Origin: Escherichia phage PhiR12_1
Sequence record: PV340549
Reading direction: 5' to 3' (one strand)
DNA: 54,435 nt
The notes under the pieces were generated by a model. The model searched no databases. It saw only the letters and a list, made by a program, of their open reading frames with translations, and was not told the DNA's origin. Of the stretch, positions 15,719-41,175 are shown piece after piece. Position numbers and translations under genes: made by a program. Numbering within the stretch: the stretch's first letter is position 1; every line of letters begins with the position of its first letter.

Positions 15719-16432
15719 ATGGCGACTCAAATTTCCGTTGAAACTCTTTCCCCAATTGCCTACAACCAGATCCCCGTAATTACTACAGAATTATTGGCGC
15801 AATTGTATGGCACTGAAACAGTCAATATAAAAATGAATTTTTCCCGTAACTCTGCGCGATTTGTACAGGGAAAACATTTCTTTAAGTTGGAAGGGAATGA
15901 ACTACGTGAGTTCAAGCACAGACTATCTTTAAGCGAGTCTGTTAGCCGCGAGGTAACAGAAAGTTACTCTGTGAAAATCGCCCGCAATGTTCGCTCCCTC
16001 ATCCTCTGGACAGAACGAGGCGCAGCCCGTCACGCAAAAATGCTAGAAACCGATCAGGCGTGGGATGTGTTCGAAAAACTGGAAGACTGCTATTTCAGCC
16101 AGTGCGAGAAAAATACTGGCAAACAAGAGAAGAAGCTCAACGGGCTTTCCGCAAAAGAAACAGACAGCCTTGTATGGCTGTGGGATTATGCCAACCGCTC
16201 ACAGGCATTGTTCCGTGAGTTGTATCCCGCATTAAAACTGATTCAGTCTGGCTATTCCGGCATATGCCACGACTACGGCTATGAGTTCTCGTATATCATC
16301 GGGAGGGCGAGGGGCGTTTTAATTAATCACACGCGGGATATAGATATTTATGAGCCTGACGGGCCGACGAACCTTCTGGCATGGGAAAGGCTTAAGAACA
16401 AAGAGTTGCCGCCTTCACTGCATCGCTACTGA
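15719..16432 (+). CDS. ORF6N-domain antirepressor/Roi-like protein with shared C-terminal module
   Basis: N-terminal ORF6N-like DNA-binding domain; C-terminal 96 aa and the downstream terminator are nucleotide-identical to the end of the Bro-N gene at 40218-41132. Confidence 0.7.
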
Positions 16433-16475
16433 CAATTGACAACTTAACAAACCCAGCTTCGGCTGGGTTTTTTAT
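16144..16475 (+). repeat. 332-bp exact direct repeat, copy 1 (copy 2 at 40844-41175)
   Basis: Base-by-base identical through the gene 3' end, stop codon and terminator; identity ends at 16476 (t versus c). Confidence 0.95.
16451..16474 (+). terminator. Rho-independent terminator (inside the repeat)
   Basis: cccagc-ttcg-gctggg followed by tttttt; duplicated at 41151-41174. Confidence 0.75.
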
Positions 16476-16500
16476 TGCTGAATTTTCAATATGAGAGGAC

Positions 16501-17229
16501 ATGACAATGAATGAGCTGATAAATAGCAATGCCATCAAAATGACAAGCATTGAAATCGCTGAGTTGGTGGGAAGTCGTCATGACAAGGTGAAACAATCCA
16601 TTGAACGACTGGCGGTTCGAGGTGTGATCCGAAATCCCCCAATGGTGGTTTTCGAAAAAATCAATAACTTAGGATTACTTCGTGGCGTAGAGGCTTACGT
16701 TTTTGAGGGCGAACAAGGTAAGCGCGACAGCATTATTGTCGTTGCCCAGTTGTCGCCGGAATTCACCGCTCGCCTTGTTGACCGCTGGCGAGAACTCGAA
16801 GGGGCAACCGCGAAAATACCACAAACCTTTTCTGAGGCATTGCGCCTTGCGGCCGACCTTGAAGACCAGAAGGCTGAACTGGAGAAACAGCTTGCTCTCG
16901 CAGCACCTAAAGTTGAGTTTGCCGATCGCGTTGGCGAGGCCAGCGGAATTTTGATTGGAAACTTTGCAAAGGTTGTTGGTATTGGTCCAAACAAACTGTT
17001 TGCGTGGATGCGCGATCACAAAATCCTTATTGCTTCAGGCTCCCGGCGCAATGTGCCAATGCAGGAATATATGGATCGCGGCTATTTCACAGTGAAAGAA
17101 ACAGCGGTCAACACAAATCACGGAATACAGATATCGTTCACCACAAAAATCACCGGACGTGGTCAACAGTGGCTGACCAGAAAGCTGCTCGATAACGGAA
17201 TGCTGAAAGTAACAGGGGAGGCTGCTTAA
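16501..17229 (+). CDS. phage antirepressor, Rha N-terminal domain plus KilA-C-like C-terminal domain
   Basis: N-terminus [24 protein letters not shown] (Rha family pattern) and C-terminal [22 protein letters not shown] (KilA-C-like); recalled family patterns. Confidence 0.65.
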
Positions 17230-17834
17230 TGGCTAAACCAGCGCGAAGGAAATGCAAAATATGCAAGGAATGGTTTCACCCGGCATTCTCAAATCAGTGG
17301 TGGTGCTGCCCGGAACACGGAACTCAATTAGCACTCGAACGACGAAGTAAAGAACGCGAAAAAGCGGAAAAAGCAGCAGAGAAGAAACGACGACGAGAGG
17401 AGCAGAAACAGAAAGATAAACTGAAGATTCGAAAACTCGCCTTAAAGCCCCGCAGTTACTGGATTAAACAAGCCCAACAAGCCGTAAACGCCTTCATCAG
17501 AGAAAGAGACCGCGACTTACCATGTATCTCGTGCGGAACGCTCACGTCTGCTCAGTGGGATGCCGGACATTACCGGACAACTGCTGCGGCACCTCAACTC
17601 CGATTTGATGAACGCAATATTCACAAGCAATGCGTGGTGTGCAACCAGCACAAAAGCGGAAATCTCGTTCCGTATCGCGTCGAACTGATTAGCCGCATCG
17701 GGCAGGAAGCAGTAGATGAAATCGAATCAAACCATAACCGCCATCGCTGGACTGTCGAAGAGTGCAGGGCCATCAAGGCAGAGTACCAACAGAAACTCAA
17801 AGACCTGCGAAACAGCAGAAGTGAGGCCGCATGA
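17229..17834 (+). CDS. ninG: NinG (Rap) recombination protein
   Basis: 201 aa, closely matches lambda NinG as recalled (MAKPARR...EWFHPAF..NQWWC...[61 protein letters not shown]...). Confidence 0.9.
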
Positions 17835-17877
17835 CGCTCTCAGTAAAAACCATTCCAGATAACAAGGGAGAAGTCGC

Positions 17878-18396
17878 ATGGGCATAAGAGAACTAAACCT
17901 CACCAAAGAACAGCACGATTGGCTGAATGGCTGGCTTGAACTGTGGGGCGCATGGGTTTATTCAGGTCGTCTGGAAAAGCGCATGAGCAGCGTAATAGCG
18001 AAGTTCATGGAGAGCGTAGAGCCGGGAAGAGTTATGACAAGACCAATGTGTAATGATGATGATGGAATGTTGATTTCTCAGGTCGTCGATTCCGTCATGT
18101 ACATTGACAAGAAAGCCTTTGGCATCCTCCTCAGCTACTACGCTCATGGTTCATCTAAGAGAGCAATTGCATCCTACTATCACGAGACTGCAAAGCCACG
18201 CAAGATGTGTGGACGCGGTGGCGAGGGATGGAGAAAACCTTCACTGGCAACCTGTAGAAACGAAATTGACGATATCCTGAAAGCGTCATTATTTGTTTTG
18301 TACCAACCAATGCAAAATGCTTTCAAAATGCGTAAACGTGTTGAGAAAGTTAAGCATGTTGCTGTTAAAAGCCTTGACATGCAATTAGCCATTTAG
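17878..18396 (+). CDS. Q: late-gene antiterminator Q (non-lambda Q type)
   Basis: Position immediately upstream of the late promoter/terminator; LELWGAWVYSG...CNDDDGMLI pattern resembles QuuD/phage-82-type Q (recalled). Confidence 0.55.
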   Translation: MGIRELNLTKEQHDWLNGWLELWGAWVYSGRLEKRMSSVIAKFMESVEPGRVMTRPMCNDDDGMLISQVVDSVMYIDKKAFGILLSYYAHGSSKRAIASYYHETAKPRKMCGRGGEGWRKPSLATCRNEIDDILKASLFVLYQPMQNAFKMRKRVEKVKHVAVKSLDMQLAI

Positions 18397-39656: not shown

Positions 39657-39904
39657 TATTTTTCATCCTTACCATACATGGTCTTTAGCGTCTCAAGCAG
39701 CGCCTCTTTGAATTTGTCAGCTTCTTGGTTAGCGAATCCTTCAAGTGAGCGAGGGCCATCAAGATTATCAACATGTTTTTGAAGGATAAGCACAATCTCT
39801 GAGTTCATTGATCTGCCGTTTTTATCCGCTTCCTGCTGAATGCGTTTCTTTAAATAGTCTGGAATCCTAATTCCCAAGGGACTGATATCTCTTGCACCTT
39901 TCAT
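39656..39904 (-). CDS. Arc/Mnt-type ribbon-helix-helix repressor
   Basis: MKGARDISPLGIRIPDYLKKRIQQEADKNGRSMNSEIVLIL: RHH pattern; strong aggagg RBS. Confidence 0.6.
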   Translation of the reverse strand: MKGARDISPLGIRIPDYLKKRIQQEADKNGRSMNSEIVLILQKHVDNLDGPRSLEGFANQEADKFKEALLETLKTMYGKDEK

Positions 39905-40014
39905 TTTTCCTCCTGCACGCTGTAGCATTGCTACACAGTGTAGGCAAAAAAACTTTGACTTTAAATAAGCACGGTGTAGTATTTAGTTATCACGGTGTAG
40001 CAATTGGGAAAGAA
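39905..40014. promoter_or_regulatory. divergent promoter/operator region of the immI-like module
   Basis: Perfect palindromes tgtagcaTtgctaca (39921-39935) and ctacacAgtgtag (39931-39943); direct repeats cacggtgtag (39970-39979, 39991-40000); -35 TTGACT (39955-39960) and -10 TAGTAT (39977-39982). Confidence 0.45.
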
Positions 40015-40155
40015 ATGAAAGTTAGAGATATCGCTCCATTAGGGATTCGTATCCCGCCAGAGATTAAAGAAAAATTGAAGGAAAAGGCTAAGGAGGAGGG
40101 CAGGTCTTTAAATTCAGAAATAGTGCAGCGTCTTATTCGCAGCCTAAAAAGTTGA
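40015..40155 (+). CDS. Arc-like ribbon-helix-helix repressor (46 aa)
   Basis: MKVRDIAPLGIRIPPEIKEKLKEKAKEEGRSLNSEIVQRLIRSL; paralogous to the divergent gene at 39656-39904. Confidence 0.5.
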   Translation: MKVRDIAPLGIRIPPEIKEKLKEKAKEEGRSLNSEIVQRLIRSLKS

Positions 40156-40217
40156 AGCCCCAACTGCTGTAACAGTCAGGGCTTCGGTATCAACAAATCG
40201 GATTAGGAAATATTGAC

Positions 40218-41132
40218 ATGAAAAGTATAGCAAAGGCACAAAACGATTTCACCATCTTCAAATTCGGCGACAGTGAAATCCGCGTCATCAACAAGTGCGG
40301 TGAGCCGTGGTTTGTAGCAAAAGATGTTTGTGATGCTTTAAATCTGACTAACTCACGCAAGGCGCTTACTGCACTTGATGACGATGAAAAGGGAGTAACT
40401 TTAAGTTACACCCTTGGTGGTGAGCAGAATTTAAGCATTGTGAGCGAATCAGGTATGTATACATTGGTTCTGCGTTGCCGCGATGCCGTCAATAAAGGTT
40501 CAGTCCCGCACAAATTCCGCAAATGGGTGACAGCTGAAGTTTTGCCATCCATTCGTAAAACGGGGTCTTACGGAAATACACTGAAAGCTAAAAAGGCGTT
40601 GCCGGGGAAAATCACTACTGAACAGCAGGAAGCCATTAAACAACTCGTCATGAGTCGCGGTCAGTCTCTGCCAAAGGAAAAACAGGCGAAGGCGATGATC
40701 ACCATGTGGTCGTCACTGAAATCACATTTTGGATGTTCGTACAAAGAAATCAGCGAGGAGCAGTTTACCGAAGCTCTGTCACTTGCTGCTCGCGTTCCGC
40801 TTGAAGGAGAGTTAATCGGCAAACAAGAGAAGAGCACCAACGAGCTTTCCGCAAAAGAAACAGACAGCCTTGTATGGCTGTGGGATTATGCCAACCGCTC
40901 ACAGGCATTGTTCCGTGAGTTGTATCCCGCATTAAAACTGATTCAGTCTGGCTATTCCGGCATATGCCACGACTACGGCTATGAGTTCTCGTATATCATC
41001 GGGAGGGCGAGGGGCGTTTTAATTAATCACACGCGGGATATAGATATTTATGAGCCTGACGGGCCGACGAACCTTCTGGCATGGGAAAGGCTTAAGAACA
41101 AAGAGTTGCCGCCTTCACTGCATCGCTACTGA
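40218..41132 (+). CDS. Bro-N domain antirepressor-like protein with shared C-terminal module
   Basis: N-terminal Bro-N pattern ([24 protein letters not shown]...[14 protein letters not shown]); C-terminal 96 aa identical to that of the 15719-16432 protein. Confidence 0.7.
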
Positions 41133-41175
41133 CAATTGACAACTTAACAAACCCAGCTTCGGCTGGGTTTTTTAT
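40844..41175 (+). repeat. 332-bp exact direct repeat, copy 2 (copy 1 at 16144-16475)
   Basis: Identical to 16144-16475 including stop codon and terminator. Confidence 0.95.

Follow-up and report, generated by a model that had tools for sequence, protein, structure and literature searches.

Why do two antirepressor genes with unrelated N-terminal parts end in exactly the same DNA? Could this identity betray a fresh graft of one gene's C-terminal part onto the other, or is it the trace of continuing exchange among prophages? The question is raised by Escherichia phage PhiR12_1 (sequence record PV340549), of which we analysed a stretch of 54,435 nucleotides, here called the window. A preliminary description, made from the sequence alone, had pointed out a 332-bp direct repeat at the 3' ends of two antirepressor-like genes, one in the nin region (gene A) and the other in an immI-like module (gene B), and had read it as the product of a recent exchange of a C-terminal module and as a substrate for deletion of the DNA in between. 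According to the modular theory of lambdoid phages, conserved linker sequences serve as sites at which modules are exchanged. We propose that lambda-like Escherichia coli prophages offer two slots for ant genes, one in the nin region before a Rha/KilAC gene and the other between tail genes L and K; both are filled here. The 332-bp block is very probably a recombining 3' module (P22AR_C domain, stop codon and terminator) of a mosaic antirepressor family, and its identity the outcome of exchange between slots and between co-resident prophages.

Extent and content of the repeat

Direct comparison confirmed the identity claimed for positions 16144-16475 (copy A, + strand) and 40844-41175 (copy B, + strand): the two agree at every one of the 332 nt, and the identity extends 0 bases to either side. 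The copies have the same orientation and lie 24,700 nt apart from start to start. In a repeat search of the window they were the sole long direct repeat besides the collagen-like GXY tandem units of the tail fibre gene. The 26 nt 5' of both copies are partly alike and include a 16-nt identical run (GGCAAACAAGAGAAGA); the flanks beyond are unrelated. A 332-nt exact match by chance in 54 kb is impossible.

Each copy forms the 3' end of an antirepressor gene, together with its stop codon and terminator. The block opens with the last base of codon 142 of gene A and holds 95 complete sense codons, not the 96 counted earlier, followed by the stop codon and by 43 non-coding bases that end in a hairpin and a U-run; stop and terminator had been recognised correctly. 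The hairpin at the 3' end of the repeat, CCCAGC-TTCG-GCUGGG followed by UUUUUUAU, folds at -15.1 kcal/mol (z = -4.3 against shuffles) and has the GC-rich stem and U-run of a Rho-independent terminator. In copy A this intrinsic terminator (16449-16475, +) was picked up by a terminator scan and by RNA folding. Its counterpart in copy B (41149-41175, +), identical in sequence and 11 nt before the start codon of K, was missed by the scan only because its flank shortens the T-run.

Gene A (15719-16432, +) encodes 237 aa and lies in the nin region between ninE and a Rha/KilAC gene, the order being ninB, ninE, gene A, Rha/KilAC (Roi-like), ninG, Q. Gene B (40218-41132, +) encodes 304 aa and is the ant gene of an immI-like cassette. 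The domains first assigned to the two proteins are borne out by Pfam, with ORF6N (2.1e-20) and P22_AR_C (1.5e-23) in gene A, and Bro-N (2.5e-20) and P22_AR_C (3.3e-25) in gene B. The P22 Ant-type domain they share (PF10548) scores 83.1 and 88.4 bits in the two proteins, against a curated cut-off of 22.4. At the protein level the likeness reaches 9 residues further than the repeat: 101 of the last 104 residues are identical between A and B, and nothing else is common to them. At 86 of 104 positions (83%) this tail agrees with the C-terminal 104 residues of P22 Ant, and gene B matches P22 Ant with 62% identity over 171 aa. The N-terminal domain P22_AR_N is found in neither protein, A and B carrying ORF6N and Bro-N; P22_AR_N versions of ant do fill the same slots in other genomes.

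Occurrence of the two copies in other genomes

Could the repeat be an assembly artefact, a segment collapsed or duplicated, as the preliminary description had itself considered? Nothing specific speaks for this, although short-read assemblers may be misled by repeats of such length, and some short-read assemblies do include contigs that look recombinant (L012/L089, L017 and L026; see below). Each copy, however, completes an intact open reading frame (ORF) with unique flanks. Both exact copies, moreover, are present in PhiR12_4 and PhiR12_5 (PV340553 and PV340554), which are 99.5-99.8% identical to the window and hold the 332 bp at both places, as well as on a 5.15-Mb chromosome contig (GCA_054792675.1), and copies stand at the same places in strain NCTC9112. 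The repeat is real, and the probability of an artefact is negligible.

Junctions and modules were compared across 5,426 complete RefSeq E. coli genomes, a set that does not include the window's own genome. NCTC9112, the closest genome of the set, carries both genes in the same positions; its nin copy equals the window repeat exactly and its tail copy differs at 5 sites. Only 9 sites distinguish this genome from the window over the 3.6 kb of the cassette region: 5 lie in the repeat and 4 elsewhere, and those 5 are exactly the sites that separate NCTC9112's own two copies. The nin slots of NCTC9112, E110019, RM10410 and phage 2851 contain the block at 100% identity. At 99% or better it is matched by 407 E. 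coli records, and in exact or nearly exact form it ends the ant genes of many Shiga toxin (Stx) phages, including Phi24B and VT2-Sakai. The exact gene A protein is recorded on 31 contigs and the exact gene B protein on 16. A homologue search with the short module yielded mostly truncated proteins (at most 182 aa) and could not be used to count architectures.

Exchange between the two slots

We tabulated alleles at six variable sites of the block (17, 20, 37, 49, 153 and 284) among near-identical copies from the complete genomes and 50 IMG/VR contigs. The haplotype is mostly AGGCTT in the nin slot and mostly GAATCT in the tail slot. Copy B of the window, a tail-slot copy, carries the nin-type haplotype AGGCTT. 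Mosaics of the two types are found in both positions: GAGCTT, AGATCT and AGATTT, plus the AGGCTT of the window, in the tail slot, and AGACTT, AGGCCT and GAACCT in the nin slot. In IMG contig 643348545_000013, where both slots are filled, the copies differ at 3 sites and the nin copy contains a patch of tail-slot type. These haplotype mosaics suggest that exchange from slot to slot is recurrent and runs in both directions.

Would purifying selection on a common protein function suffice to hold the copies identical, without recombination? The C-terminal domain is indeed highly conserved, with 83% identity to P22 Ant. Yet two of the six sites (37 and 49) are synonymous, and the copies are identical at these sites and in the non-coding tail of the block, the 43 bases after the stop codon. 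Since silent sites and the non-coding terminator are identical, the identity is due to shared ancestry or recombination and not to selection at the protein level. The alleles, in addition, show four-gamete mosaics, and we find selection as the cause of the identity scarcely credible.

A fresh domain swap, by which one gene newly took P22AR_C from the other inside this phage and so gained a new architecture, would be in keeping with the perfect identity, the sharp boundaries and the unrelated N-terminal parts. It is contradicted by the age of both architectures. The gene A protein is a full-length match to phrog_377 ('anti-repressor Ant') and the gene B protein an end-to-end match to the phrog_245 antirepressor family; since these PHROG families are established ones, neither chimera is new, and both architectures are widespread. 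Tail-slot genes that join Bro-N to P22AR_C exist with C modules 82-99% identical to that of the window, and in NCTC9112, which has this pair of genes, the copies differ at 5 sites. Such older, diverged chimeras make a fresh swap very improbable. Of the 'recent exchange of a C-terminal module' that had been proposed, recent homogenisation is supported by the haplotype mosaics; a new grafting is not, given the established PHROG families, the 82% identity between the two copies of phage 2851 and the 5 sites of NCTC9112.

How this lineage came by two copies

PhiR12_2 and the window share 99.917% identity over 38.7 kb, from position 401 to 39063, the last base of L. Beyond this point the cassette that carries gene B is absent, L and K are separated by a gap of 10 nt, the K gene is 92% identical, and similarity returns to 98% from 42266. 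The cassette is also absent, with the same L-K gap of 10 nt, from PhiR12_2_star, PS2Canimalfeces12 and ST130. PhiR12_2 and PhiR12_2_star represent the same phage as that of the window, but lack the L-K cassette and have a K allele that is only 92% identical. Because these and other relatives with the same backbone lack the cassette, the second copy comes and goes with a block of about 3.2 kb made up of the cassette, K and part of I. It moves with the cassette and K, so exchange between two resident genes is not required; recombination in the tail region probably brought the second copy in, or can take it out again, as one block. Three matches (H51-H53) had seemed to span the whole 25-kb interval as two-copy relatives; H51 and H53, when fetched, proved to lack the cassette.

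The window is a mosaic relative of PhiR12_2, PhiR12_2_star, PhiR12_4 and PhiR12_5, with block differences in the lysis region, from the tape measure gene to L, and from K to I (41206-42266). The PhiR12 records look as if they were a recombinant set of one phage. A literature search on the PhiR12 phages found no paper.

Was the tail-slot copy instead overwritten by the nin-slot copy through gene conversion in situ, within this prophage lineage? That 5 of the 9 differences between the window and NCTC9112 over 3.6 kb fall at the very sites that distinguish the two copies of NCTC9112 speaks for such an event. So does the IMG contig 643348545_000013, a second two-slot prophage that is nearly homogenised, in the opposite direction. 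Exact nin-type alleles, however, already occupy tail slots in unrelated backgrounds (L013, L014, L016, L018 and L019), and the cassette is present in some, and absent from others, of the near-identical PhiR12 phages. We therefore consider conversion in situ a serious possibility, though a doubtful one.

Our preferred reading remains that the block is a recombining module whose identity stems from exchange between slots and co-resident prophages. Homologous recombination or gene conversion within the module would keep trading sequence between the slots and between co-resident prophages, and the tail-slot copy here would bear the allele typical of the nin slot. Several points weigh against this reading as a whole or in part. 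There are just six informative sites among near-identical alleles, and the loci were sampled opportunistically; with six sites and a small sample of this kind, the direction and number of conversion events are weakly resolved. Prophages with about 2% divergence from the window (L013, L014 and L016) have exact nin-type copies in their tail slots, and import of an already converted cassette fits the data as well as conversion in situ does. As a ground for binding of repressor by P22AR_C, a structure model of the C domain offers three helices with generic helical fold matches only. The CI protein of the window, finally, has an S24 peptidase domain (Pfam) and is thus of the self-cleaving type; neither Ant is therefore required for induction.

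The block as a crossover site

A natural example of the block acting as a crossover site is preserved in O55:H7 DEC5E (phage JLK-2012; L008, positions 2500-4300), where the ORF6N gene of the nin slot has received a whole transplanted mnt-arc-ant cassette. This gene is intact to 58 bp into the block; the cassette then follows, and through its own C module it meets the usual Rha/KilAC flank. On the left, the joint falls within a 10-nt microhomology (GGATTATGCC) that the block has in common with the bases directly after the stop codon of L in the tail slot. The Stx1a prophage of RM10410 also has the cassette in the nin slot, where it ends in the exact 332 bp. Taken further, the P22AR_C and terminator block might be a portable recombination handle by which the slots evolve in concert, with conversion in both directions, and whole cassettes hop between them, and the identical C-terminal domains might also let the differently regulated A and B proteins form mixed complexes on one target; this broader proposal is tentative, and we think it unlikely.

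Can the repeat also delete the DNA that it encloses, as was predicted? RecA-dependent exchange has a minimal processing length of tens of bp, and a perfect direct repeat of 332 bp is well above it and is a usable substrate for deletion. A query for the deletion junction, composed of 400 nt of the unique part of gene A, the repeat and 400 nt of K, found the junction in 0 of the 5,426 complete genomes. The reciprocal junction, built likewise, was matched in 3 genomes at 88-93% identity, and these matches are different genes, P22_AR_N-type ant cassettes in the nin slot. Pattern scans of IMG/VR revealed no true deletion junction; scans there with 17-mers next to the repeat gave 2 + 1 matches, all of them diverged alleles in normal slots and not recombinants.

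Recombinant arrangements are present in a few draft contigs. In L026, a MEGAHIT contig from a human gut metagenome with raw reads SRR1196599, the nin region, gene A and the repeat are followed by K, I and J, a deletion-type junction. To the left of this junction 3.7 kb match a widespread prophage lineage with 0-2 mismatches, and the junction itself occurs in no complete genome. The reciprocal type, in which L, the cassette, gene B and the repeat are followed by Rha/KilAC, ninG and Q, is seen in an isolate draft (L012/L089, the latter in GCA_011862085.1) and in a metagenome (L017). A short-read path through a repeat of 283-332 bp can be wrong, and these contigs are suggestive only of real recombinants. 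With a single short-read metagenome contig as its candidate product, the 24.7-kb deletion by way of the direct repeat is plausible but unproven.

The genes listed earlier between the copies (Rha gene, Q, lysis, cos, head and most tail genes) are correctly named. A deletion would remove Rha/KilAC, ninG, Q, lysis, cos, the head genes and the tail genes through L, and a cryptic derivative is the right expectation: recombination mediated by RecA or Red would leave gene A intact, joined to K, in a defective prophage.

A porin gene next to L was at one point taken for a sign of such a derivative; it proved to lie between M and L in intact tail operons. In the relatives L087, L089 and L091 an OmpC-like porin gene (384-387 aa) stands between tail genes M and L, next to the immI-like cassette.

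A P22-type immI cassette in a lambda-like tail operon

What kind of DNA brought gene B into the tail operon? The 2.1-kb insert (39064-41186) between L and K has a GC content of 39-48%, against 57-63% in the flanking tail genes. It is bordered on the left by tail gene L (38365-39063, +; Pfam Phage_tail_L, 2.7e-92) and on the right by tail gene K (41187-41924, +; Pfam Prok-JAB and NLPC_P60), the allele that is 92% identical to K of PhiR12_2. Divergent from ant lies a gene for an 82-aa Mnt-like ribbon-helix-helix repressor (39656-39904, -; Pfam Arc family) with 33% identity to P22 Mnt over 83 aa (E = 1e-13). Just upstream of ant, a 46-aa Arc-like ribbon-helix-helix repressor (40015-40155, +; Pfam Arc, 5.2e-13) shows 43% identity to P22 Arc.

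The arc-ant spacer is spanned by a sar-type antisense RNA (40150-40216, -), recognised by Rfam model RF00262 with 69.4 bits (gathering score 43; E = 9.5e-14). The match ends one base before the ant start codon (ATG at 40218) and so lies opposite the ant ribosome binding site. The DNA of this region is 82% identical to that of P22, with the -10 box and the terminator stem included, and the minus strand of the locus has a promoter-like site and a terminator-like site. A promoter-like site lies at 39955-39982 and CACGGTGTAG repeats are visible in the spacer, as candidate traces of overlapping Pant/Pmnt promoters with Arc and Mnt operators.

Downstream of the mnt-like gene, and part of the cassette, is a gene for a ClpP/S49-like protein of 178 aa (39120-39656, -; Pfam CLP_protease, 1.6e-11). 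The protein matches phrog_94 (head maturation protease) over part of the profile only, and its gene is kept alongside the cassette in several other genomes.

The label 'immI-like' given to this insert is well founded, in view of the Mnt-like (33%) and Arc-like (43%) repressors, the sar RNA (69.4 bits) and an Ant C-terminus 83% identical to that of P22. By these similarities, a complete P22 immI-type control cassette, sar included, appears to be lodged within the tail operon of a lambda-like phage. As in P22 immI, mnt, arc, sar RNA and ant follow in the same gene order and on the same strands, and ant is followed by its own terminator. The cassette differs from that of P22 in three respects. 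The N-terminal domain of Ant is Bro-N here and P22_AR_N in P22. The cassette is placed between L and K of a lambda-like siphovirus, whereas in the podovirus P22 it lies between genes 16 and 9. The gene after mnt, finally, is ClpP-like here, in contrast to orf59a and sieA in P22. The same cassette is present in many E. coli prophages and in Stx2c phages. A literature search for an immI-like cassette between L and K found no paper.

Comparison with Stx phages and modular linkers

The nearest published parallel in layout is the Stx2c phage 2851 (FM180578), which has the same two slots filled, with antB in the nin region and an antirepressor-like gene between L and K. Its antB carries the identical 332 bp, as the window does. 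Its tail-slot copy is 82% identical to its nin-slot copy, so that phage 2851, unlike the window, is without a perfect direct repeat.

The ant gene of Stx phages of the Phi24B/933W type, in the nin region, has a C module that is 98.6-99.4% identical in DNA (98.8% to the window block for Phi24B). For the Phi24B type the alignment starts about 150 nt before the repeat (query 427-433), and the N-terminal part differs from the ORF6N allele of the window. Phi24B and VT2-Sakai each have a single matching copy, in contrast to the two in the window.

The block resembles the linkers of modular phage genomes in that a conserved stretch bounded by a terminator is the crossover site between otherwise unrelated segments. 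It differs from them in that the linker is itself a protein domain and occurs twice in one genome. The repeat is ordinary lambdoid mosaicism, its perfect identity is a detail at the level of the lineage, and a published phage already shows the two-slot layout.

Possible roles of the two antirepressors

P22 Ant binds and inactivates repressor. Might the proteins of genes A and B do the same? Both have the same C-terminal helical domain, which presumably bears their common function. A sequence search of the two proteins against PDB chains gave no match at E <= 0.01. The Phi24B/933W-type Ant, whose last 104 residues are 82% identical to P22 Ant, has a role in faster derepression on induction (PMC3064807). 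Knockout of the Phi24B ant, a gene with the C module discussed here, lowered a reporter of the late promoter pR' to 27-56% of wild type after induction (PMC3064807). This phenotype, the one observation that bears on the matter, lends indirect support to the idea that the A and B proteins may bind and inactivate a CI/C2-type repressor.

By analogy with these relatives, gene A would be read from the early rightward operon after induction and would speed derepression. Gene B would be kept silent by the Mnt-like repressor, with Arc and sar adjusting its expression, on the model of P22. No LexA boxes were found near either ant gene.

Other features of the window

Directly after copy A, at the right flank of the nin slot, stands the Rha/KilAC (Roi-like) gene of antirepressor type (16501-17229, +), which matches Pfam ANT (6.2e-33) and Phage_pRha and belongs with phrog_63. 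Two LexA-box matches, 12 nt from each other (54132-54175), stand ahead of a DinI-like gene (53868-54116, -; Pfam 1.2e-16). This is the only convincing pair in the window, in which CTGT-N8-ACAG has 6 matches against 0.6 expected, and it is likely to mark an SOS-controlled unit at the right prophage end. The last 50 bases (54385-54435) resemble the 3' end of ssrA (transfer-messenger RNA, tmRNA) on the reverse strand and suggest an attachment site; ARAGORN detected no complete tmRNA gene at 54385-54435.

The tail fibre ORF (46470-48032, +; 520 aa) contains collagen-like GXY repeats, which make up three of the four direct-repeat families of the window. An IS21-family element similar to ISEc12 (48228-50530, -; IstB 249 aa, IstA 513 aa) lies in the tail fibre region; in NCTC9112 the IS21-family copy is found in tail assembly gene I instead. 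Between N and cI an ORF of 341 aa (9694-10719, -) without a Pfam match takes the position of lambda rexAB and is for this reason a candidate exclusion or defence gene.

Meaning for the lambdoid prophages

What does the repeat mean for this group of phages? Our results leave the current view of lambdoid phage evolution unchanged. Within that view, one conserved block of domain and terminator would mediate antirepressor mosaicism in E. coli prophages, those of the Shiga-toxin phages included, and P22-type immI control, with its sar RNA, is widespread in the form of a cassette inserted into lambda-like tail operons. For short-read assembly of these prophages the repeat can be a source of error, and it could give rise to defective prophages or hybrid phages. 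The presence of two or three antirepressor-type genes per phage may, in addition, matter for cross-induction in strains that harbour multiple prophages.

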